A stretch of 32,000 nt of DNA from Edaphobacter aggregans (lineage in GTDB: Bacteria; Acidobacteriota; Terriglobia; Terriglobales; Acidobacteriaceae). Positions 2,786-21,564 of this stretch are shown piece after piece. Each line of letters opens with the position of its first letter. Position 1 is the first letter of the stretch. The notes under the pieces are model-generated. The model did not search any database. It was not told the DNA's origin and was given only the letters and a program-made list of their open reading frames with translations. The position numbers and the translations under genes are program-made. The stretch covers positions 1,260,001 through 1,292,000 of the forward strand of contig NZ_RSDW01000001.1 in NCBI RefSeq assembly GCF_003945235.1. The letters run 5' to 3'.

Positions 2786-5211
2786 CGTTCACTCCAGCGC
2801 ACATTGCGGAAGCCGGCGGTGGCCGGTGCTGCAATGGTGCGGAGCCATGTCGCGATATTGAGATAGTCCTCGGACACAGGAGATTCAGGGGCATAGTCGA
2901 CCACGGTCATGCCTTCAGCCAGAGCCTCACTGACCGCAGGCGCGCGACGTATGACGAAAGGCAGAAGCCGCTCGCCGAGCTGGCGACGCAGCACCTCGCG
3001 CACATCCAGATGCAGTGGAAGCGACGCATCAAACTGGTTGAGTAAATAGTAAGGCTGAAGCTGCCGCCCATCCGCATCGACGGCGCCATGGAAGAACTTT
3101 TCGATGGACTGCAGACTGATGACCGAGTTCATATCAGGCGCTAACGGCACTAGAATAGTCGGATTCATACGCGCCATGTGGCGGACGATCCAACCCGAGC
3201 TCGGCGTTAGGTCCAACAAAATACGGTGCGTGCCACGGCTGTTGTTGACGATCTCCTCGATCAGGTGGTCCTGCGCGGCCTCGTCGCCTATCTTCTGATC
3301 GACGTCATAGCTGACCAGATAGATCGGAGCATCTGTGCTTCCGCTGGGTGGCGAGAATGTACGCACGGTTCCCTGCCGCAGCTCACTGGCTCCAAAGTAG
3401 AACGGCAGCAGACCGTGAGACGTGGTGTCGGTAAGCAGCACTTTTTCGCCAAGCGAAGAGAGCGAACGTCCGACCGTAGCCACCAGGCTGGTCTTACCGA
3501 CGCCACCGGCCAGCGAGAAGACGGCCAGCACTGGAGTCCGTGTCTCCTTCTGGCGAACCGGTGTCGGTTCGGGCTGTTCTTGTCCTGGTTGTTCGAAGAC
3601 TCCTTTAAGCGCGTACCAGCGAGCCGCAACGCGCTCACGTGAGTGCTGCAATGTCTCTGCAACAGAGGACTGTGGAGGAAGCGGCGTTGGCACAACGGGT
3701 CTGACTGGAGCCGACGATACCGGTGGTGCGTAGAGCCACGCTGGACCTGCTGGGTCGGATACATAAGCCGCGCGCTGCGCCGATGAGATCGTTGACGACC
3801 CGGGCAGCGGTTCCGAAGTGCGCTGTGGAGGGTCAGAGTAGGAAGAGACAGGCCGATAGCCGAAGTCGTCTTGCGCACGCCGTCCACGGGAGGTTTCAGG
3901 AGCAACCGGCGGCTGCGAGAACGGAGAGACCGCTCTGAGCGAACCCGATGGCGAGGATGGGCGTGCCGAAACTACAGGTCTCGGCGTGGGGATGCTCGTC
4001 GGCTCCAGATCTACACTAAGGTCGCGCCGGGAACCAAACCCGGAATCGAACCCTGCCTGAGGCTGCTCGACAGAGGGCCAACCCACGTTGCGCTCACCGG
4101 AATCCGGCTGAGGAGCCCGTGTCCACGGGGAAGGCTTCGGATCAGTATGTCTCTTGCCTCCTGCAACCGCATTAGGCACTTCAGATGACGAGGTAGATCG
4201 CTGGGAAGAACTAGGCTGTTCGGGCAAGGGCCTGATAGCCGGAGAAGGCGCGGATCCAGACGAGGAACCAAGAATCGCCGGCGGCGGAACAAACGAGGCC
4301 CGGCTCAGCGAATGAATCGTCGGCCTCACCGGTTCAGCAGGAGCATCAATTGCTTTTGGCATCTCAAACTCTGGCCCACGGTAGATCTGTCGGACACCGG
4401 AAGCCTCATCCGGGCTGTACCCAAGCGGTCGCCGCTGGGAGACCTGCGATGACGGCGACGTGTACTCGATCCTGGGTGGCGCAGGGGGAGGAGGAACGGG
4501 AGCAGCCTCGGCAGGTTTGGGAGCCGCAGTGTAGCTAGTGTTCACTTCAGAACGAGGAACGGATGGCGCCTGAGAGACCAATGGATTCTGAGATAACGGC
4601 TCCGACTGCGACGGAATAGGCGGTGGTGGTGCCGTGACCGGCGATGGCGGACCCACAGATGCCTGTGGCTGCGGAGTATATGGATCGGAGATGTGGCCCG
4701 GGACCTGCGCATATCCTTGCGACCCAGCCATTTCCCGACGGCGAATCTCAGATTCGGCATATCGAGCGGCCTGTCGTTGTGCCGAAGCATGCGCCTCGGC
4801 AATCTCGCGTTCTTCTCTGCGCGCAGCAGCTTCGGCTACGGCAGCGGCTTCAGCCCTGCGAGCTGCCTCAACACGCTCGGCAGCTGCGGTACGGGCGGCT
4901 TCTTCGGCTTCACGCAACGACCGCTGCATCGACGAGTCAGAATTCGGAGCCTGTGCGGCTTCTGCTGCTTTGCGAGCTGCCGAATCCGCTGCTACTGCGG
5001 CCGCCTCAGCCTCGGCCTGGGCCATCAACGCCTGCTCGCGAACCTGCTCCGCGGCGCGGTGTCTTAGCTGGGCGCGATACTCACGTCGCGATGCAGAAAA
5101 ATCCCGATACTTCGCTCCATGCAGGTTTGCCCACGAGTAGAGTACGGCCACATCTTCGGGCGTCTCTGCGGAGTCCAGCTCTTCCATCTTGTCTGCGCCG
5201 CGCGGATCCAT
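2782..5211 (-). CDS. bcsQ: BcsQ/YhjQ-like cellulose synthase operon ATPase with a long N-terminal coiled-coil and Pro/Ser-rich extension
   Basis: The C-terminal ~250 aa resemble E. coli BcsQ by eye (LAGGVGKTS deviant Walker A; LLNQFD...LLPFVIRRAPAVSEALAEG...DY...ATWL). The N-terminus is Ala/Glu/Arg-rich, followed by about 400 aa of P/S-rich low complexity. The stop overlaps the bcsA start (ATGA at 2782-2785). The start is uncertain: ATG 5244 (track), 5211 (AGGACGAG upstream) or 5187. Confidence 0.8.
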   Translation of the reverse strand: MDPRGADKMEELDSAETPEDVAVLYSWANLHGAKYRDFSASRREYRAQLRHRAAEQVREQALMAQAEAEAAAVAADSAARKAAEAAQAPNSDSSMQRSLREAEEAARTAAAERVEAARRAEAAAVAEAAARREEREIAEAHASAQRQAARYAESEIRRREMAGSQGYAQVPGHISDPYTPQPQASVGPPSPVTAPPPPIPSQSEPLSQNPLVSQAPSVPRSEVNTSYTAAPKPAEAAPVPPPPAPPRIEYTSPSSQVSQRRPLGYSPDEASGVRQIYRGPEFEMPKAIDAPAEPVRPTIHSLSRASFVPPPAILGSSSGSAPSPAIRPLPEQPSSSQRSTSSSEVPNAVAGGKRHTDPKPSPWTRAPQPDSGERNVGWPSVEQPQAGFDSGFGSRRDLSVDLEPTSIPTPRPVVSARPSSPSGSLRAVSPFSQPPVAPETSRGRRAQDDFGYRPVSSYSDPPQRTSEPLPGSSTISSAQRAAYVSDPAGPAWLYAPPVSSAPVRPVVPTPLPPQSSVAETLQHSRERVAARWYALKGVFEQPGQEQPEPTPVRQKETRTPVLAVFSLAGGVGKTSLVATVGRSLSSLGEKVLLTDTTSHGLLPFYFGASELRQGTVRTFSPPSGSTDAPIYLVSYDVDQKIGDEAAQDHLIEEIVNNSRGTHRILLDLTPSSGWIVRHMARMNPTILVPLAPDMNSVISLQSIEKFFHGAVDADGRQLQPYYLLNQFDASLPLHLDVREVLRRQLGERLLPFVIRRAPAVSEALAEGMTVVDYAPESPVSEDYLNIATWLRTIAAPATAGFRNVRWSER

Positions 5212-5539
5212 AATTTCTCGTCCTGAACACCTTGATAACGACATTAGCCAACGTCATTTGAAACTGTACTATTGGTATCTCTTGACGGAGTAGCTGCACA
5301 TTTTGTTATGCAATAGCCTGAGGCTACTGCGCGCGTAACTTCAAGTCAATCAACCGACCGTGCGACTTAAGTGTGACCCTTCCTGCTGTGACTTTCTCGA
5401 CGCTTACCGCTCCAATATTTGCTGCTTCTGTGAGCGCCCTCGCCCAACTCCTTGGATGCATCCATATGCTGCCGTCTGGGCAAATCCACAGCGCAGATTT
5501 ACACGCCCCATTTGTGCTAAGTTGGTAAGGTGGTTGTTC

Positions 5540-5615
5540 GAGAGCGTAGCTCAGTTGGTAGAGCATCGCCCTTTTAAGGCGTTGGTCCTGGGTTCGAGCC
5601 CCAGCGCTCTCACCA
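5540..5615 (+). tRNA. tRNA-Lys (anticodon UUU), CCA encoded
   Basis: Manual cloverleaf, 76 nt. Acceptor GAGAGCG/CGCTCTC; D arm GCTC-AGTTGGTA-GAGC; anticodon arm TCGCC-CTTTTAA-GGCGT; variable loop TGGTC; T arm CTGGG-TTCGAGC-CCCAG; then A-CCA. Confidence 0.95.
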
Positions 5616-5616
5616 T
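5565..5616 (+). repeat. attL: 52-bp direct repeat (3' part of tRNA-Lys)
   Basis: ATCGCCCTTTTAAGGCGTTGGTCCTGGGTTCGAGCCCCAGCGCTCTCACCAT is identical to 21513-21564. Confidence 0.9.
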
Positions 5617-5655
5617 AAAATCAGTAACTTACAAGCACAACTAAAACCACAAAAA

Positions 5656-5699
5656 CCATCGGGGATACAAAAGGGATACTTCACTGGATACCCCGATGG
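5656..5699 (+). promoter_or_regulatory. Hairpin carrying three GGATAC repeats; candidate integrase arm-type sites (P' arm) and possible tRNA terminator
   Basis: The stem CCATCGGGG (5656-5664) pairs with CCCCGATGG (5691-5699). GGATAC occurs at 5663, 5673 and 5686. The 19-mer GGGATACAAAAGGGATACT (5662-5680) is repeated at 21368-21386. Confidence 0.5.
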
Positions 5700-5737
5700 A
5701 CTCTTTTCCTCCCATAGTTTCCACGCCCACCATTTCC

Positions 5738-6462
5738 GGCATCCAACGAACCAGATAGACCTAGTAGTTCCTTGAGCCCTCATTCGGACGAGTGAGGGTC
5801 TTTTTTTGTTCCCCCTATTCCTGTCACTCTCGGCCCTGTAGCCACCCCACCGTGTCTACATCCACGCACGCCGTTAATGGCATCTAACCAACCAGAGATG
5901 GATCTAGTAGTTCCTTTTCGGACCCTCATTCGGGAAGAGTGAGGGTCGCTTTTTGTGCTCCCCTTCTGTTTTCCAAACTCATAGGCATCCAATCACTCTT
6001 TATGGTGCGTCAAAAAATCCGGCGCACTTTTGAGGTCGCCTTCGGTTGTAGGTCGTGAAGAGCCCTCAACCTGACCAAAGTGCGCCACCCCTCCATATGA
6101 ACGTCATGGCTTTCGGAAGAGATGAAAGCCTTTGCCCGTAGGTTGCAGCCCATGCCGCACCGTGTCTACATCCAAGCAGATAGACCAGGCATCCAACAAA
6201 TCAGCAGAGCTAACCAGCTACAACCCTTTGAGACCCTCATTCGGATAGACGAGTGGGGGTCCTTTTTTGTGCCTTCTCCCACTCGATAGCATCTACATCC
6301 ACCCCACCAAATTCAGGCATCCAACGAACCAGATGGTGCAAAATGCTTTGCTTCTGAGGCCCTCACTCCGACGAGTGAGGGTTCTTTTTGCTCTGTTCAC
6401 TTTTCCGACACACAAGGCATCCAATCTTTCCACTGTGCGTCCTAAGAAAATAGGCGCACTTT
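5738..6462 (+). repeat. Array of six divergent sRNA-like modules (GGCATCCAA box, variable segment, GC hairpin, T tract)
   Basis: Units lie at 5738-5807, 5879-5954, 6188-6268 and 6316-6389 (hairpin CCCTCA..TGAGGG followed by T5-7). Two further units lie at 5984-6031 and 6416-6462 (hairpin GTGCG..CGCAC followed by T3-4). No credible ORFs are present. T tracts occur only on the + strand. Confidence 0.6.
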
Positions 6463-6587
6463 GATCTCTCCGGTCTAGGAAGTTGCTAACCACCCTAGCA
6501 GCCCCTACAAAGCGCCCCGCCCTCCCCCAGTCCCGGTACGAGGAACCAGGCCATGGCACTTGCGATACACTCTGCACATACCAAACC

Positions 6588-6890
6588 ATGCAGCCCACTA
6601 ACCTCATACTCATGCAGCCCGTCGTACGTCACCGCGTCTACGTCCATGTAACCCACGCTCCTCATCAGTATGGTGAGCACTTCACAGTCCGATATCTCGA
6701 AGAGGATCTAAAGACTCCTTTGGGGCGCATGTATAGGTACACCCGTATAGACCAAGTGAGGGAGATTCTGAAGCGTGCAGACTATGCGCCTGAGCAGTGG
6801 GGGAAGTTTGAGGAGGGGCTCCGTTGCCGTGGTGTGGGTGCGTGCTATTTGGATCTTAAGAGCGAGCAATATAAGAAGCTGAAGCGGTAG
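6588..6890 (+). CDS. Hypothetical protein (island cargo)
   Basis: ORF 6483-6890. The first in-frame ATGs are at 6588 and 6612. I recognise no motif. Confidence 0.45.
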   Translation: MQPTNLILMQPVVRHRVYVHVTHAPHQYGEHFTVRYLEEDLKTPLGRMYRYTRIDQVREILKRADYAPEQWGKFEEGLRCRGVGACYLDLKSEQYKKLKR

Positions 6891-6913
6891 ATTGAACGGA
6901 AGCACTAAAGATT

Positions 6914-7600
6914 TCAATCTGCAGATTGGCGGGAGCATGAACTGAGGCTTGCTCCCACCTTCAAGTGCTCGTTATCGGTCCATTGGCATATTTTCGTGTG
7001 CTTTATTTTCTTGTCCCTGTCGATGTACAGAATGCAGCCCGGAAAGAAGTAGACTGGATCGGCTTGCCCTTCATCCAACCTACGATACGCTTCAGTGGGG
7101 AAAGAATATGAGTCGCCCGGAAACACTATATCTCCGACCTTCAAAGGCATGATATCTCCCTCAAGGCGCGCGCAAACCTTATCAATCGCTGGGCGTATAT
7201 CAGTCCCCCCGTTGCCAATAACTAGATCCAAGGCAGGAACCACATTAAAGGCGGGAGAGTTTCCGAAATTTTTTACTTTAGCCGTTATCTCAATATCCAT
7301 AGAGCCACGGGGATCATCGACCAACTTGGAAATTGTTATTGGATCAGCCAGTCCAACCCACGGTCGCTGGGACATCTCAAATTCCTGTTGAGCTATTCTT
7401 GCCTGTGTTCGGGAAACACTGATGCTCATATAGAGGGCAACAAGTGCTAAGAGGCTTATAGCGGCAGCCACACCTGTAATCCAATTGAGGTGTTTAGCTG
7501 TCCTAAGCGTTGTCTCACGATTTTTCTTTTCCTCGTCGTATCTTTCATTGCCTTTGGATGAAGACTCGATTTGCACAGGAAGAGGGTTGGGTATTTTCAT
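6914..7600 (-). CDS. Single-pass membrane protein, unknown function
   Basis: The track ORF starts at a TTG (7684); the first ATG is 7600 (MKIPNPL...). It has a charged N-terminus, one TM helix (WITGVAAAISLLALVALYM) and a C-terminal domain of about 150 aa. Confidence 0.6.
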   Translation of the reverse strand: MKIPNPLPVQIESSSKGNERYDEEKKNRETTLRTAKHLNWITGVAAAISLLALVALYMSISVSRTQARIAQQEFEMSQRPWVGLADPITISKLVDDPRGSMDIEITAKVKNFGNSPAFNVVPALDLVIGNGGTDIRPAIDKVCARLEGDIMPLKVGDIVFPGDSYSFPTEAYRRLDEGQADPVYFFPGCILYIDRDKKIKHTKICQWTDNEHLKVGASLSSCSRQSAD

Positions 7601-7803: not shown

Positions 7804-8097
7804 ATGGCGATCATCGACTGTAACGTTTACGTATATCGAGATCCTTCGTTTCCCAGCGCGACGATTTGGGTGGAAGCTGACGACGGGAGGGCATGGGTTA
7901 CTGCCGTTGGAAAACTCGGTTTGCTTCAGCATGAAGCGGTGAACTTACCTCATGAATTGAGACATAGTCCTCCATCGGACGTATTGGGTTCTCTCAAACC
8001 GATATACAAATTTCTTGGGAGTTACCCATTCGATGAAGAAGTGCTGGACAATACGTGGGATATCGACACACCGCCCAACATTGCGAAGACCAAATAA
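7804..8097 (+). CDS. Hypothetical protein
   Basis: A 97-aa ATG-started ORF lying between two minus-strand membrane-protein genes. I recognise no motif. Confidence 0.45.
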   Translation: MAIIDCNVYVYRDPSFPSATIWVEADDGRAWVTAVGKLGLLQHEAVNLPHELRHSPPSDVLGSLKPIYKFLGSYPFDEEVLDNTWDIDTPPNIAKTK

Positions 8098-8878: not shown

Positions 8879-9094
8879 ATGAAGTACCGCGAGAGTTGGG
8901 AACTGCCTAGCATTCCTAATGAAGTCTTCTGGCCTGAGGTCGGACGCAGAAGAAACGAGATAGCGAGTGGAGGCAGGCCAAAGACACTTCGGGACTGTGA
9001 ATACTGCGGACAACAGTACAGCGCCAGGGAGATGCGAAAACATAAGCCTCTATGTCCAAAGGGGCCTAACAAGAAAACCAAGAAAGGAAAATGA
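8879..9094 (+). CDS. Small putative zinc-ribbon protein with a basic tail
   Basis: 71 aa, containing CEYCGQQYSAREMRKHKPLC and a KKTKKGK tail. It is the first gene of a tightly packed three-gene + strand set. Confidence 0.45.
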   Translation: MKYRESWELPSIPNEVFWPEVGRRRNEIASGGRPKTLRDCEYCGQQYSAREMRKHKPLCPKGPNKKTKKGK

Positions 9095-9611: not shown

Positions 9612-9658
9612 CCCCCACCGAGCCTCAATGAGAGATCAGGTGGGGGCATTGTGTTGCT
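9612..9658. terminator. Hairpin element A (CCCCCACC..GGTGGGGG followed by CATTGTGTTGCT); homolog of 10892-10934
   Basis: An 8-bp GC stem with loop GAGCCTCAATGAGAGATCA, 22 nt after the stop of 9371-9589. Confidence 0.5.
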
Positions 9659-10882: not shown

Positions 10883-10934
10883 AAAAAATGAGCCCCACCA
10901 CCTCAATGAAGAGATGATGGGGCATTGTGTTGCT
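10883..10934. terminator. Bidirectional terminator, hairpin element B
   Basis: An A6 run (10883-10888), then the stem GCCCCACCA/TGATGGGGC with one mismatch, then CATTGTGTTGCT. It sits between the convergent genes 10563-10868 (+) and the capsid gene (-). Confidence 0.6.
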
Positions 10935-18277: not shown

Positions 18278-19333
18278 TTAGGCACTGGGAAGCCACTTCA
18301 GCTTTACCCTCATCCGCTCCACACGCTTGCGAACAGTAGCGGGGTTCATTCCCAGCCCCTTGGCAATCTCTGCACAGTTGGAGCCTGCCTGTAGCTGGTT
18401 GGCAATCAGCCGATTGGTTCCTGTGACCCAATCAGGCAACTTCTCTACCGTCTTGAGGTCAGGAGGTTGAACATAGCGAGAGGCTGGATGGTGGCGTTCT
18501 TCATCATGAATATATTGCCTGATGACATCTGGATGTTCCTCTTCTTCACCAAACTCAGTCTCAACCAAAAAAGGAACCATGCCGGCGTAATTTGCATTGA
18601 TCTCCCGTTTGGCATCACATCCAACCGTGTGGCAGATTGTTGTAAGCCAGGCGCAGAAATCGCCGGGTCCACCAACAAACTTATTGAGACCGTTGCAGAC
18701 TTTCATGGCTACTATCTGCGAGTAATCATCTTCATCTTTGAATGCGTCAGGCAAACCGTGGATTGCACCTTTGATCTTCTTCTTAGCAAAATCAATGACA
18801 CAATCAAGCAAATATTCCCCGGCTATTTCATGGGCGTTATTTTCAGTTACAAACGGGTCGATGAAGTTTGCATACGCCTTCTCAATCCCGTCTTTGTTGC
18901 GACGGTACTGAATTGCTTCTAGGCTGTTCCCTCTACCATCCCCAGTATCGAGCCAGGATTGCTCAGGGGCGTCTTCTGAGTCTTCAATGGGCTCTGAGTA
19001 CCCTGATTTCGTGATAGGGCATCCAGGTGACATTGTTGTAGGGAATGGATTACGCCTGATCGTTTCAATGTAGACACGCCGTTCTGTGCAGGCTGGTTCG
19101 ATGTAACCGCACTGCTCAGGGAAGCTGACGTACAACGTCTTGCGGGGTCTCTTGGTGCCAACGATGGAGTCATAACGAGCCGCTGTCTTCTGCATCAGTT
19201 CCGGCCACCATGCCATTGTTTGGTCTGCCTTGGTCCTGTGGTCTGGTGTCCAGTTGTGTTCAGGCTGTGGGAAGAAGTCGCTGGGGATAGTCCTTGGTCG
19301 GCATGTGGGAATTGCTTTATGAGCTGCGGCCAT
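18278..19333 (-). CDS. ECF-type sigma-70-like protein with an N-terminal extension of about 160 aa of unknown function
   Basis: Region-2-like DYSQIVAMKVCNGLNKFVGGPGDFCAWLTTICHTVGCDAKRE. Region-4-like LPDWVTGTNRLIANQLQAGSNCAEIAKGLGMNPATVRKRVERMRVKL. Its ATG overlaps the upstream stop (TAATG). Confidence 0.6.
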   Translation of the reverse strand: MAAAHKAIPTCRPRTIPSDFFPQPEHNWTPDHRTKADQTMAWWPELMQKTAARYDSIVGTKRPRKTLYVSFPEQCGYIEPACTERRVYIETIRRNPFPTTMSPGCPITKSGYSEPIEDSEDAPEQSWLDTGDGRGNSLEAIQYRRNKDGIEKAYANFIDPFVTENNAHEIAGEYLLDCVIDFAKKKIKGAIHGLPDAFKDEDDYSQIVAMKVCNGLNKFVGGPGDFCAWLTTICHTVGCDAKREINANYAGMVPFLVETEFGEEEEHPDVIRQYIHDEERHHPASRYVQPPDLKTVEKLPDWVTGTNRLIANQLQAGSNCAEIAKGLGMNPATVRKRVERMRVKLKWLPSA

Positions 19334-20150: not shown

Positions 20151-21332
20151 CTACTTCTCAAGCTGTCTGAGCCCTTCCATTGCTAACCGCATGGTCTTCT
20201 CGTTCAGGTGGATGTATCGGGCTGATGTTTGGGCTGACTTGTGACCGGCTGCCTTCATGATGACGAACGCATTCGCGCCGTTCTCAGCCAACCGTGTGCA
20301 GAAACTGTGCCGCAGATCATGCCAGCGGAAATTCTTAATCCTCGCCCGTCTGAGTGCAGAGGCAAACCATTTTTTATTATCTGCAATGGCAAAAACTAAA
20401 TCAGGAGCAGAATTGTTTGGCTTACCCGCTACTCTGCGCTTGCGATGAAGAGAGAGTGACTTGAGTCCTCGGAACGCCTTGAATACGTCTTCGTTCATGT
20501 AAACAACGCGATCCGTGTTTGTCTTCGTGTTGCGAACCATTATTTTCTTTTCTTCAAACTCAACATCTGGCCAGGGCAGACTGTACTGTTCACCCCGACG
20601 CAATCCTGCTCCAAGCGCAATGTCCAACTCGTAGATGTGGTGCTGTGCTCTCTCCTTCAGGGTCGTCTTCGTGGGTCCGCAGGCGTCAACATCGGCCTGC
20701 AGAACTTTACGCAACCGCGCCTCTTCCTTTTCAGAGAGCGCCCTGATTACACCTTCACCCACTGGCTCGGATGCCACATCCCTAGCCGGATTGACGGAAA
20801 CCTTACCCTTCCGTATGCCATGCCGATACACACCTGAGAATGTCGTCTTGAGCCTGTTACGGGTCGCTGGAGCCCTGTCTATGTTCTCCAACCAATCGGA
20901 AATCTCATGCGCCTTCACCCCAGAGGCGATTCTGCTCCCAAACTCTTTTTTGATTTGCCCTAGTCGTCTAGGTGGGTTCTCTTGGTCCTTGTACTTCTTG
21001 GGATTCTTCTGGATGTGGTTCAGCAAAAGGTCACAGAGGTGGGAAACCGTGACACCTGCTATTTCTGCCTCCACCTCGTCTTTTGTTCTCGCGGTTTGCT
21101 TGGCCGTCTCTGGAACAGAACCATTGCCAGACGAACGGATGTATCGAACCTTTTCCAAATAGGCAACAGCATCCTCCCTCCTGCCTATTCTCTTACGCAC
21201 CAGATGCCCGTGGAGGCGATAGCGGACGTACCAGATACCTGAGCCCTCATTCTTCTCGTAAACGCCTGCTACAGCCTTTCCTGTGCGTTTCTTTCTGGGT
21301 GCGGGGTGGGTGGGGTGGGTCATGGCAGTCAT
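20151..21332 (-). CDS. int: Tyrosine recombinase / phage integrase
   Basis: C-terminal catalytic motifs (LRRGE..., WHDLRHSFCTRLAENG, GHKSAQTSARYIHL). N-terminal arm-binding-like domain (GIWYVRYRLHGHLVRKRIG). The start is probably ATG 21332 (GGAGG upstream); the track ORF extends to 21407 over the arm-site repeat. Confidence 0.9.
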   Translation of the reverse strand: MTAMTHPTHPAPRKKRTGKAVAGVYEKNEGSGIWYVRYRLHGHLVRKRIGRREDAVAYLEKVRYIRSSGNGSVPETAKQTARTKDEVEAEIAGVTVSHLCDLLLNHIQKNPKKYKDQENPPRRLGQIKKEFGSRIASGVKAHEISDWLENIDRAPATRNRLKTTFSGVYRHGIRKGKVSVNPARDVASEPVGEGVIRALSEKEEARLRKVLQADVDACGPTKTTLKERAQHHIYELDIALGAGLRRGEQYSLPWPDVEFEEKKIMVRNTKTNTDRVVYMNEDVFKAFRGLKSLSLHRKRRVAGKPNNSAPDLVFAIADNKKWFASALRRARIKNFRWHDLRHSFCTRLAENGANAFVIMKAAGHKSAQTSARYIHLNEKTMRLAMEGLRQLEK

Positions 21333-21367
21333 GCAGAAGAGTCCTCCAGCCGCCATAATACCTGTCT

Positions 21368-21386
21368 GGGGATACAAAAGGGATAC
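21368..21386 (+). promoter_or_regulatory. Candidate integrase arm-type site (P arm)
   Basis: GGGATACAAAAGGGATACT is identical to 5662-5680 and in the same orientation. Confidence 0.5.
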
Positions 21387-21512
21387 TAATTTCCGATTAT
21401 GCTGCAACTCAATGCGCTGTATTGCTCATGAGGCTTCATTTTATACATCAATGTTTAGAGGGGTTTAATACGTATTGAGATGCATAAAGAGGCACTGTGT
21501 GTCAGCAATGTA

Positions 21513-21564
21513 ATCGCCCTTTTAAGGCGTTGGTCCTGGGTTCGAGCCCCAGCGCTCTCACCAT
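21513..21564 (+). repeat. attR: 52-bp copy of the tRNA-Lys 3' end (no 5' half, not a gene)
   Basis: Identical to 5565-5616. The upstream sequence GCAATGTA does not continue the tRNA. Confidence 0.9.

Follow-up and report, generated by a model that had tools for sequence, protein, structure and literature searches.

Tandemly arranged paralogues of small RNAs (sRNAs) include OmrA/OmrB of E. coli, which share one seed, and LhrC1-5 of Listeria. In Anabaena, 12 copies of NsiR1 stand in tandem, every one of them behind a promoter of its own, and NsiR1 has been reported in all available heterocystous cyanobacterial genomes (PMC4030482). Here, we describe an array of six short modules in a 32-kb stretch of the Edaphobacter aggregans genome (hereafter, the window, in which all positions are counted) that lies on the + strand between a tRNA-Lys gene and a small protein-coding gene, at the left end of an integrated island. 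Like the tandem sRNA arrays, it consists of head-to-tail units of 50-80 nucleotides (nt) on one strand, each with its own intrinsic terminator; as in OmrA/OmrB, the units vary more in their centre than in their conserved 5' and 3' parts; and, as with NsiR1 beside hetF, the array adjoins a co-oriented gene. Unlike in those arrays, NsiR1 included, there is no recognisable promoter for each copy and no conservation in the other genomes searched, the copies carry a fossil of the start-codon region of the neighbouring gene, and the setting is a phage-satellite-like island in Acidobacteriota. By this comparison, the architecture resembles that of tandem sRNA paralogue arrays; the array is confined to a single locus in the data searched and matches no described RNA family. 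We tentatively read the array as a lineage-specific tandem set of short, terminated, + strand sRNA-like transcription units, an interpretation that we favour but hold to be possible rather than probable.

Several other systems share individual features with the array. Intrinsic terminators occur in tandem behind stable-RNA genes, and the modules resemble them in their G+C-rich stems of 10-12 bp, loops of 4-6 nt and T5-7 runs directly downstream of a tRNA gene; unlike plain terminators, six follow each other in series, each preceded by a conserved box that termination would not require. The CI RNA of satellite P4 (seqA/seqC) and the c4 RNA of P1/P7 depend on RNA complementarity to repeats in the same transcript. 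Short repeats and small RNAs (here putative) in the leader of a co-oriented operon are likewise found in our locus, but a search for inverted repeats finds only terminator arms pairing together, which does not fit RNA immunity of the P4 type. ToxI repeats are ~34-45 nt long, contiguous and followed by one shared terminator. The modules, too, are direct repeats, located just ahead of a small gene and running in its direction, but they lie 100-204 nt apart, each with its own terminator, and the downstream protein matches no toxin family in Pfam or PHROG and has homologues elsewhere that lack the repeats, so that a ToxI-like (type III toxin-antitoxin) system is not indicated. Finally, the array is similar to segmental duplications with 5' gene-fragment pseudogenes in that the first ~12 codons of the gene recur, with disrupted frames, in the same orientation and order, and differs from them in that the box and the terminator, which are not gene-derived, are better conserved than the gene fragment.

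Architecture of the array

The array fills the first ~850 nt inside attL and runs in the same direction as the tRNA gene. A first-pass annotation of the window had proposed six units, each with a box, a variable segment, a hairpin and a T run, and every one of these elements was recovered. The sequence GGCATCYAAY occurs six times in the window (5738, 5879, 5984, 6188, 6316 and 6416), always on the + strand, against 0.32 occurrences expected from shuffles, none of which reached six; the longer, 17-nt box of the type-1 units, GGCATCCAACGAACCAG, is found four times with up to three mismatches, against 0.11 expected. Successive boxes are irregularly spaced (141, 105, 204, 128 and 100 nt), and the units follow each other in the order type 1, type 1, type 2, then the same again. 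The core CATCYA is present ten times on the + strand within 684 nt (5740-6423), in line with the at least ten CATCCA cores counted in the annotation.

A type-1 copy comprises a fossil gene start (the head), 13-14 nt, the box GGCATCCAAC-AAYCAG, 20-25 nt of diverged sequence (the middle) and a Rho-independent terminator. Unit 1 (5712-5807) has a degenerate head (5712-5737), the box GGCATCCAACGAACCAG (5738-5754), a middle segment (5755-5775), a hairpin (5776-5799) and T7 (5801-5807). In unit 2 (5826-5954), the head (5826-5866) is followed by the box (5879-5895), the hairpin (5921-5947) and T5 (5950-5954). Unit 3 (6144-6268) begins with the head TGCAGCCCATGCCGCACCGTGTCTACATCCA (6144-6174) and continues with the box (6188-6204), the hairpin (6232-6261) and T6 (6263-6268), and unit 4 (6285-6389) consists of the head ATAGCATCTACATCCAC (6285-6302), the box (6316-6332), the hairpin (6358-6383) and T5 (6385-6389). 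The reported similarity upstream of units 1 and 4 is real and extends over 37 nt at 84% identity (5720-5756 versus 6298-6334), but it comprises 18 nt of upstream sequence, the box and 9 nt, not ~35 nt of upstream sequence.

The two type-2 units have the box GGCATCCAAT and ~12 nt upstream of it in common. Unit 5 (5984-6031, + strand), which is without a gene-head fossil, carries a hairpin at 6004-6028 (GGTGCGTC/GGCGCACT) and T4; unit 6 (6416-6462, + strand) carries one at 6435-6459 (GTGCG.CCTA/TAGGCGCAC) and T3. Both hairpins (GTGCG/CGCAC, 8-9 bp) with their short T runs are weak, and the type-2 units would be shorter relatives (~47 nt) of the type-1 units that share their box and end in another, weaker terminator. 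The two triplets of units are separated by a gap segment (6032-6134, + strand) with features absent from the first-pass annotation, namely a degenerate type-1 5' arm, GAGCCCTCAACCTGAC (6060-6075), and an extra hairpin, GGCTTTC/GAAAGCC (6108-6130), followed by TTTG. Separately, a 13-mer in the sequence that trails unit 3, CCTTCTCCCACTC (6272-6284), recurs in a related island (L022, 409-421; E = 0.008 in a small search), ~100 nt inside its left end; it may be a trace of a single-copy ancestor of the repeat tails.

The four type-1 hairpins have 10-12 pairs, loops of 4-6 nt and a following run of five to seven T residues, that is, the G+C-rich stem-loop and U run of an intrinsic terminator. All four were called by a terminator scan on the + strand and none was called on the - strand within the array, which bears out the earlier claim that the modules are strand-specific, with T tracts on the + strand. 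Each module thus appears to end in a credible intrinsic terminator, at which termination is predicted. An 11-bp stem is the sole consensus structure that RNAalifold predicts for the four units, and the predicted folds leave most of the box single-stranded. The stems differ among the copies by one-sided transitions: U-A to U-G in unit 3, U-G to C-G in unit 4, and G-U/A-U at the stem base. All of these substitutions keep the pairing, but only as + strand RNA, as had been proposed for the G:U pair of unit 3; the - strand folds show mismatched bulges.

Independently of the array, the stem CCCTCAYTC/GAGTGRGGG with a T run recurs in >150 unrelated metagenome and viral contigs (L024-L172) with different loops and flanks. 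Such terminator stems thus arise independently many times, and the hairpin alone cannot trace homology.

Gene-start fossils and the origin of the array

Immediately downstream of the array lies an intact small gene (6588-6890, + strand), the product of which, 100 amino acids long, is 100% identical to the NCBI hypothetical protein EDE15_1048 of Edaphobacter aggregans. Homologues are encoded in four related elements (L018, 10001-10270; L021, 7076-7315; L022, 1407-1667; L023, 116-385), and the protein alignment shows a conserved core that begins with MQPxPHRVYIH and, in the window, starts from the second ATGCAGCCC, at 6612. The 17-mer CACCGTGTCTACATCCA ahead of units 2 and 3 is indeed identical at 5848-5864 and 6158-6174, as the first-pass annotation had reported, but its origin had been missed: read as CAC CGT GTC TAC ATC CA, it codes for H-R-V-Y-I-H, the conserved N-terminus of the small protein. 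A profile of this protein family, searched with hmmsearch against the six frames of 5616-6600, retrieved fragments with E = 0.001-0.004, all on the + strand (PHRVYIHA before unit 2, LQPMPHRVYIQ before unit 3 and IYIHPTKF before unit 4).

The same relationship is apparent in the DNA alignments. The head of unit 2 reproduces, in decayed form, the small gene's -10 region and ~12 initial codons. Collinearity with the gene begins ~25 nt ahead of the start codon (aligned to L022 and L018), and in the copy TATAYAC has become TGTCAC, ATG has become CTG and CAG has become TAG; its alignments to the 5' ends of the gene give z = 3.7-7.3. The head of unit 3, TGCAGCCCATGCCGCACCGTGTCTACATCCA, is identical at 27/31 positions to the start of the L021 homologue and codes for (L)QPMPHRVYIQ, with z up to 12.4 and 0/300 shuffles reaching the score. 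When units 2 and 3 were compared with the gene 5' ends of the window and three other elements, no shuffle out of 300 did as well, save in one comparison (1/300). For unit 4, the head of which, ATAGCATCTACATCCAC, codes for IYIH, the DNA similarity is weaker (z = 3.2). Contrary to the statement in the first-pass annotation that no open reading frame (ORF) with a sensible start was present, an ATG-initiated ORF of 55 codons (6122-6289, MKAFARRLQPMPHRVYIQ...) crosses unit 3 and its terminator; it is a truncated paralogue of the small protein and most likely itself a fossil.

By local alignment, the box-to-terminator part of the units is similar to the four gene homologues only at the level of chance, so that only the heads are homologous to the gene. 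We accordingly rejected the possibility that the units are whole decayed gene copies, to which MAFFT had lent an appearance by aligning the middle and hairpin with the EDLKTPLG and RIDQVRE/EQWGKFE codons. Another candidate origin of the heads, as tRNA 3' remnants marking old att sites, is rejected or at best unproven: in the best case, unit 1 resembled the tRNA-Lys(CUU) of L021 in an alignment score reached by 6/400 shuffles, which is not significant given 36 comparisons.

In each of the four type-1 units, 13-14 nt separate the head from the box; in units 2-4, the spacing of the head and box motifs is 23-24 nt, and the pattern TCTAC-N17-19-GGCAT occurs three times in the window, always in the array, against 0.18 expected. 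This constant spacing and the excess of the pattern argue for one ancestral junction that was amplified later. The heads are collinear and on the same strand, and their frames are disrupted by stops and loss of the ATG. Together, these alignments show that the array grew by tandem duplication of a ~115-140-nt segment carrying the first codons of the small gene, and, since the upstream 17-mer is a fossil of the neighbour's N-terminal codons, the array is, on this evidence, born by local tandem duplication and is not an imported RNA family. In the intact gene, the start ATGCAGCCC is itself duplicated in frame, at 6588 and 6612, 24 nt apart; thus, the region is prone to duplication. We also note that this start duplication (6588-6620) coincides with the site from which the array copies derive, that the first codons of the gene in the window (MQP..HRVYVH) are the source of the heads of units 2-4, and that a box-like sequence, CACCGCGTCTACGTCCA, is present among them at 6629-6645.

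The small protein has no Pfam or PHROG match and no PDB-fold match at E <= 0.001, and its AlphaFold model has a mean predicted local distance difference test score (pLDDT) of 64.5. Further homologues, at 55-71% identity, are found in soil metagenome contigs. In the related genes, a TATAYAC box precedes the ATG by ~10 nt and a Shine-Dalgarno sequence is absent, so that the mRNA may be nearly leaderless. The family (MQPxPHRVYIH...ILKRADC..W.KFEEG.RC..GAC) is 65-75% identical between islands, the capsid and portal proteins of which are only ~30% identical; in this respect, it behaves as a conserved mobile module, and the protein merits attention whether or not the array is transcribed.

Conservation among the copies and competing explanations

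Among the four extended type-1 units, invariant columns make up 14/18 of the box and 23/36 of the hairpin and T run, compared with 10/61 of the head, 3/28 of the middle and 2/24 of the tail. Pooled, this amounts to 37/54 (69%) in the box plus hairpin and T run versus 15/113 (13%) in the rest (Fisher p = 1e-12), a contrast that is still very large even though the region borders were drawn after seeing the data. Pairwise identities follow the same pattern (box, 74-100%; hairpin and T run, 73-85%; middle, 44-70%; flanks, 49-68%), with the box, which is identical in units 1 and 4, being the best-conserved element. The earlier description of a conserved box and terminator around a variable middle therefore stands, and the identities fit constrained short RNAs. 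Uniform neutral decay of duplicates does not predict such a pattern, and the uneven conservation, together with the strand-specific G:U pairs, suggests constraint on short terminated transcripts: conservation of the terminator implies that transcription reaches it, and conservation of the box implies a sequence-specific role. The similarity among the copies is also mosaic, with resemblance in the box region between units 1 and 4, in the head between units 2 and 3 and in the middle between units 1 and 2, which points to recombination among them.

The amplified segment extended from a box-plus-terminator element to about codon 12 of the co-oriented small gene behind it. In the simplest history, such an element would have been situated upstream of the small gene; a tandem duplication, one end of which lay ~12 codons inside the gene, would have created the junction between head and box, and the ~115-140-nt repeat would then have multiplied, with exchange of sequence among the copies. 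Under the interpretation that we favour, selection would since have maintained the box and the terminator as the remaining sequence decayed. The predicted RNAs would measure ~55-80 nt with a transcription start at or within the box and ~110-125 nt with one at the fossil gene start. Their common working element would be the shared 5' box, predicted to be single-stranded, acting as a pairing seed or a protein-binding site, and the variable middle would not be the working part. The suggestion in the first-pass annotation of different seed regions in the middle segments is the weakest part of its proposal: because the conserved single-stranded element is the 5' box, the units, if they are sRNAs, share one seed.

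Several results weigh against the array being a set of sRNA-like transcription units. Scanning 5200-7200 for the sigma-70 consensus yielded no promoter, the homologous -10 of unit 2 has decayed, and the promoter-like geometry seen by eye in units 2-4 (TCTACA-16/17-[AT]GGCAT) has a second hexamer without A at position 2. There is no complement of the box in the window. Target prediction within the island, which the first-pass annotation had put forward as a check, produced no duplex with the 19 island start regions that was better than shuffles; unit 5 with the ORF at 7804 gave p ~0.015, uncorrected. Covariation, looked for on the same suggestion, amounts to 0 compensatory base-pair changes in the four-unit alignment, and three or four one-sided transitions among four copies are suggestive, not proof, and are not statistically decisive. 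Furthermore, patchy gene conversion could in principle also give the uneven conservation.

The searches for relatives point the same way. The modules are absent from the related islands that carry the small gene (L018/L019, L021, L022 and L023) and from those with the closest capsids (L176-L179, 62-73% identity), where the first-pass annotation would have had such a family conserved, and a covariance model built from the four type-1 units had no match in eleven related loci. In Rfam 15, only the tRNA passes, the best other matches having E >= 3.6, far below the gathering scores. Among IMG/VR viral contigs, the box plus 3' arm pattern gave 10 single matches with unrelated flanks and without the hairpin and T run, and the head plus box pattern gave three matches in viral contigs with no unit features. 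A pattern scan of the GTDB species-representative genomes (596 Gb), a set that did not return the source locus and is evidently without the source genome, gave seven single matches in unrelated phyla. The box plus hairpin pattern had 0 matches in JGI metagenome contigs, blastn found no match among INPHARED phages and PLSDB plasmids, and chimeric six-frame translations of the array had no match at E <= 10 among 5.8 billion proteins. The hairpin alone returned >120 metagenome and 29 viral matches, all of them unrelated terminators with other loops and flanks; thus, it carries no family information. These searches show the array to be unique to this locus in the data covered. In the same data, a generic repetitive extragenic palindrome or miniature inverted-repeat transposable element, which the first-pass annotation had named as the finding that would undo its proposal, is unlikely: no module copy is present elsewhere in the window, and the 596 Gb hold only the seven single matches. 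What survives of the proposed multicopy sRNA-like family are real, strand-specific, terminator-capped modules, to which no promoter, Rfam match, covariation, target or relatives can be added.

One alternative is that the array is a stack of terminators acting in cis as an insulator, with no trans-acting RNA. It would stop read-through from the strongly transcribed tRNA-Lys gene, or from any fossil promoters, into the small gene and, antisense, into the - strand island genes. The position directly between tRNA-Lys/attL and the sole + strand gene at this end would be the right one, the four strong terminators all face the + strand with none on the - strand within the array, and the lack of a detected promoter for individual units is what a cis-acting stack would show. 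In addition, related islands have a - strand gene or an integrase gene, and no array, between the att site and the small gene, so that the present island is without that buffer; tblastn found no remnants of such - strand genes at this position. Nevertheless, one or two terminators would suffice for this purpose, and an insulator leaves unexplained both the 17-19-nt box, although it is the best-conserved element, and the retention of the box in type-2 units with a different hairpin. We therefore regard the insulator as an unlikely explanation, if one to be taken seriously.

To the same extent unlikely, in our estimation, is that the array is non-functional debris, in which slippage or unequal crossing-over duplicated the gene start and the terminator, and the conservation of box and hairpin reflects recent or patchy gene conversion. 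The heads are pseudogenised (ATG to CTG, in-frame stops, the truncated 55-amino-acid ORF), the mosaic similarity points to recombination among copies, and the array is confined to one locus in everything searched, all as expected of debris. Yet uniform neutral decay does not yield 69% versus 13% invariant columns, conversion tracts would need to cover both box and hairpin in each of the four copies and yet leave out the intervening 20-25 nt, and the stems and T runs are intact in all four type-1 units.

A more specific version of the sRNA interpretation is that the array encodes four to six paralogous sRNAs, recently born from a duplicated promoter-proximal gene end and sharing the 5' seed GGCAUCCAAC-AAYCAG, which would either have transcripts of the host or of a helper phage as trans targets or titrate an RNA-binding protein. 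We consider this version doubtful, below either of the two alternatives just described. A candidate antisense interaction with the integrase mRNA, based on the 13-mer TGAGCCCTCATTC that the array shares with 21240-21252, was rejected, given that 24% of shuffled arrays reach the same score. Likewise, the box was rejected as an island-wide promoter motif, perhaps for the sigma-like protein of the island, as neither the box nor the head motif shows enrichment elsewhere in the window, and resemblances of the box to sigma-54 promoters and to integron attC sites (RYYYAAC), checked by eye, do not hold.

The least probable account treats the CATCCA boxes as iterons or operator-like sites bound at the DNA level by the helix-turn-helix (HTH)/sigma-like protein of 351 amino acids, TerS or the integrase, with the hairpins incidental: ten CATCYA on one strand within 684 nt, the 23-24 nt between the head and box motifs in units 2-4 and the island's DNA-binding proteins would agree with it, but the units are irregularly spaced, no replication gene or AT-rich region adjoins the array, other intergenic regions of the island lack the motif, and the T runs and strand-specific G:U pairs go unexplained.

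If transcribed, the modules would be among the very few candidate regulatory RNAs in Acidobacteriota, located on a phage-satellite-like element, and an unusually clear case of the birth of a multicopy sRNA family, in which fossil start codons mark each duplication. Should they be trans-acting sRNAs, they would document the stepwise birth of an sRNA family from the 5' end of a gene, with the fossils still attached. If they are not transcribed, the locus would be a duplication-prone island end behind a tRNA gene, with terminator-like repeats that mimic an RNA family.

The island and its att sites

The island is bounded by a 52-nt exact direct repeat (5565-5616 and 21513-21564), which represents attL and attR. 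The tRNA-Lys(UUU) gene was identified at 5540-5615 on the + strand with ARAGORN and scores 71 bits against the Rfam tRNA model; its 3' part (5565-5616) is attL, which confirms the earlier placement of the array beside this site. At the other end, attR (21513-21564, + strand) has the tyrosine integrase gene (20151-21407, - strand) just inside it. The island is 15.9 kb long, has a G+C content of ~0.49 compared with 0.57-0.62 in the flanks, and carries its genes mostly on the - strand, the small gene being the sole + strand gene at the left end. It encodes head proteins (portal, S78 prohead protease and HK97-type capsid), a tail-tube-like protein (phrog_158, E = 2e-13), a TerS-like protein (weak match), an HNH/AP2 nuclease and the 351-amino-acid HTH protein (18278-19333), which has weak sigma-factor similarity; we found no ORF of TerL size and no recognisable primase in the island.

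Phage-inducible chromosomal islands that form capsids (cfPICIs) are about 14 kb long, lack tail genes and share a core of integrase, regulator, primase, TerS, TerL, HNH, portal, protease/capsid and head-tail adaptors (PMC10085698). The present island is similar in its integrase, capsid, S78 protease, portal, weak TerS-like protein, HNH/AP2 nuclease and length, but differs in that a TerL-sized ORF and a primase were not found and a tail-tube-like protein is present, and so does not show every core feature of that description (PMC10085698). By its gene content, the island is a capsid-encoding, satellite-like element, and looks like either a satellite of the cfPICI kind or a strongly reduced prophage.

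Between attL and the array, a first hairpin (5656-5709, + strand; CCATCGGGG...CCCCGATGG then ACTCTTTTCC) has a predicted fold of -19.2 kcal/mol (z = -2.2) and may be a weak tRNA terminator. An exact 20-mer, GGGGATACAAAAGGGATACT, occurs in one orientation just inside each end of the island (5661-5680 and 21368-21387), its left copy, with GGATAC repeats, being part of this hairpin. These GGATAC-containing 20-mers are probably arm-type integrase binding sites. The junction that follows the att core, CACCATAAAATCA[AG]TAACTTAC (window, 5611-5637; L022, 306-332; L021, 5399-5412), is common to several islands that sit in different tRNA genes (Lys-UUU, Arg-CCU and, in part, Lys-CUU). The host DNA outside the island contains, ~80 nt ahead of tRNA-Lys, a perfect palindrome of 12 nt, TGGATGCATCCA (5453-5464), that carries the CATCCA core on both strands, perhaps by chance. 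In addition, 8879-9055 codes for a homologue (66% identity, E = 3e-22) of a cysteine-rich protein of 74 amino acids, the gene of which follows the small gene in L021 and is another module common to these islands. Finally, an exact 16-mer, GGGGCATTGTGTTGCT, is repeated in the accessory region of the island at 9643-9658 and 10919-10934, 1276 nt apart.

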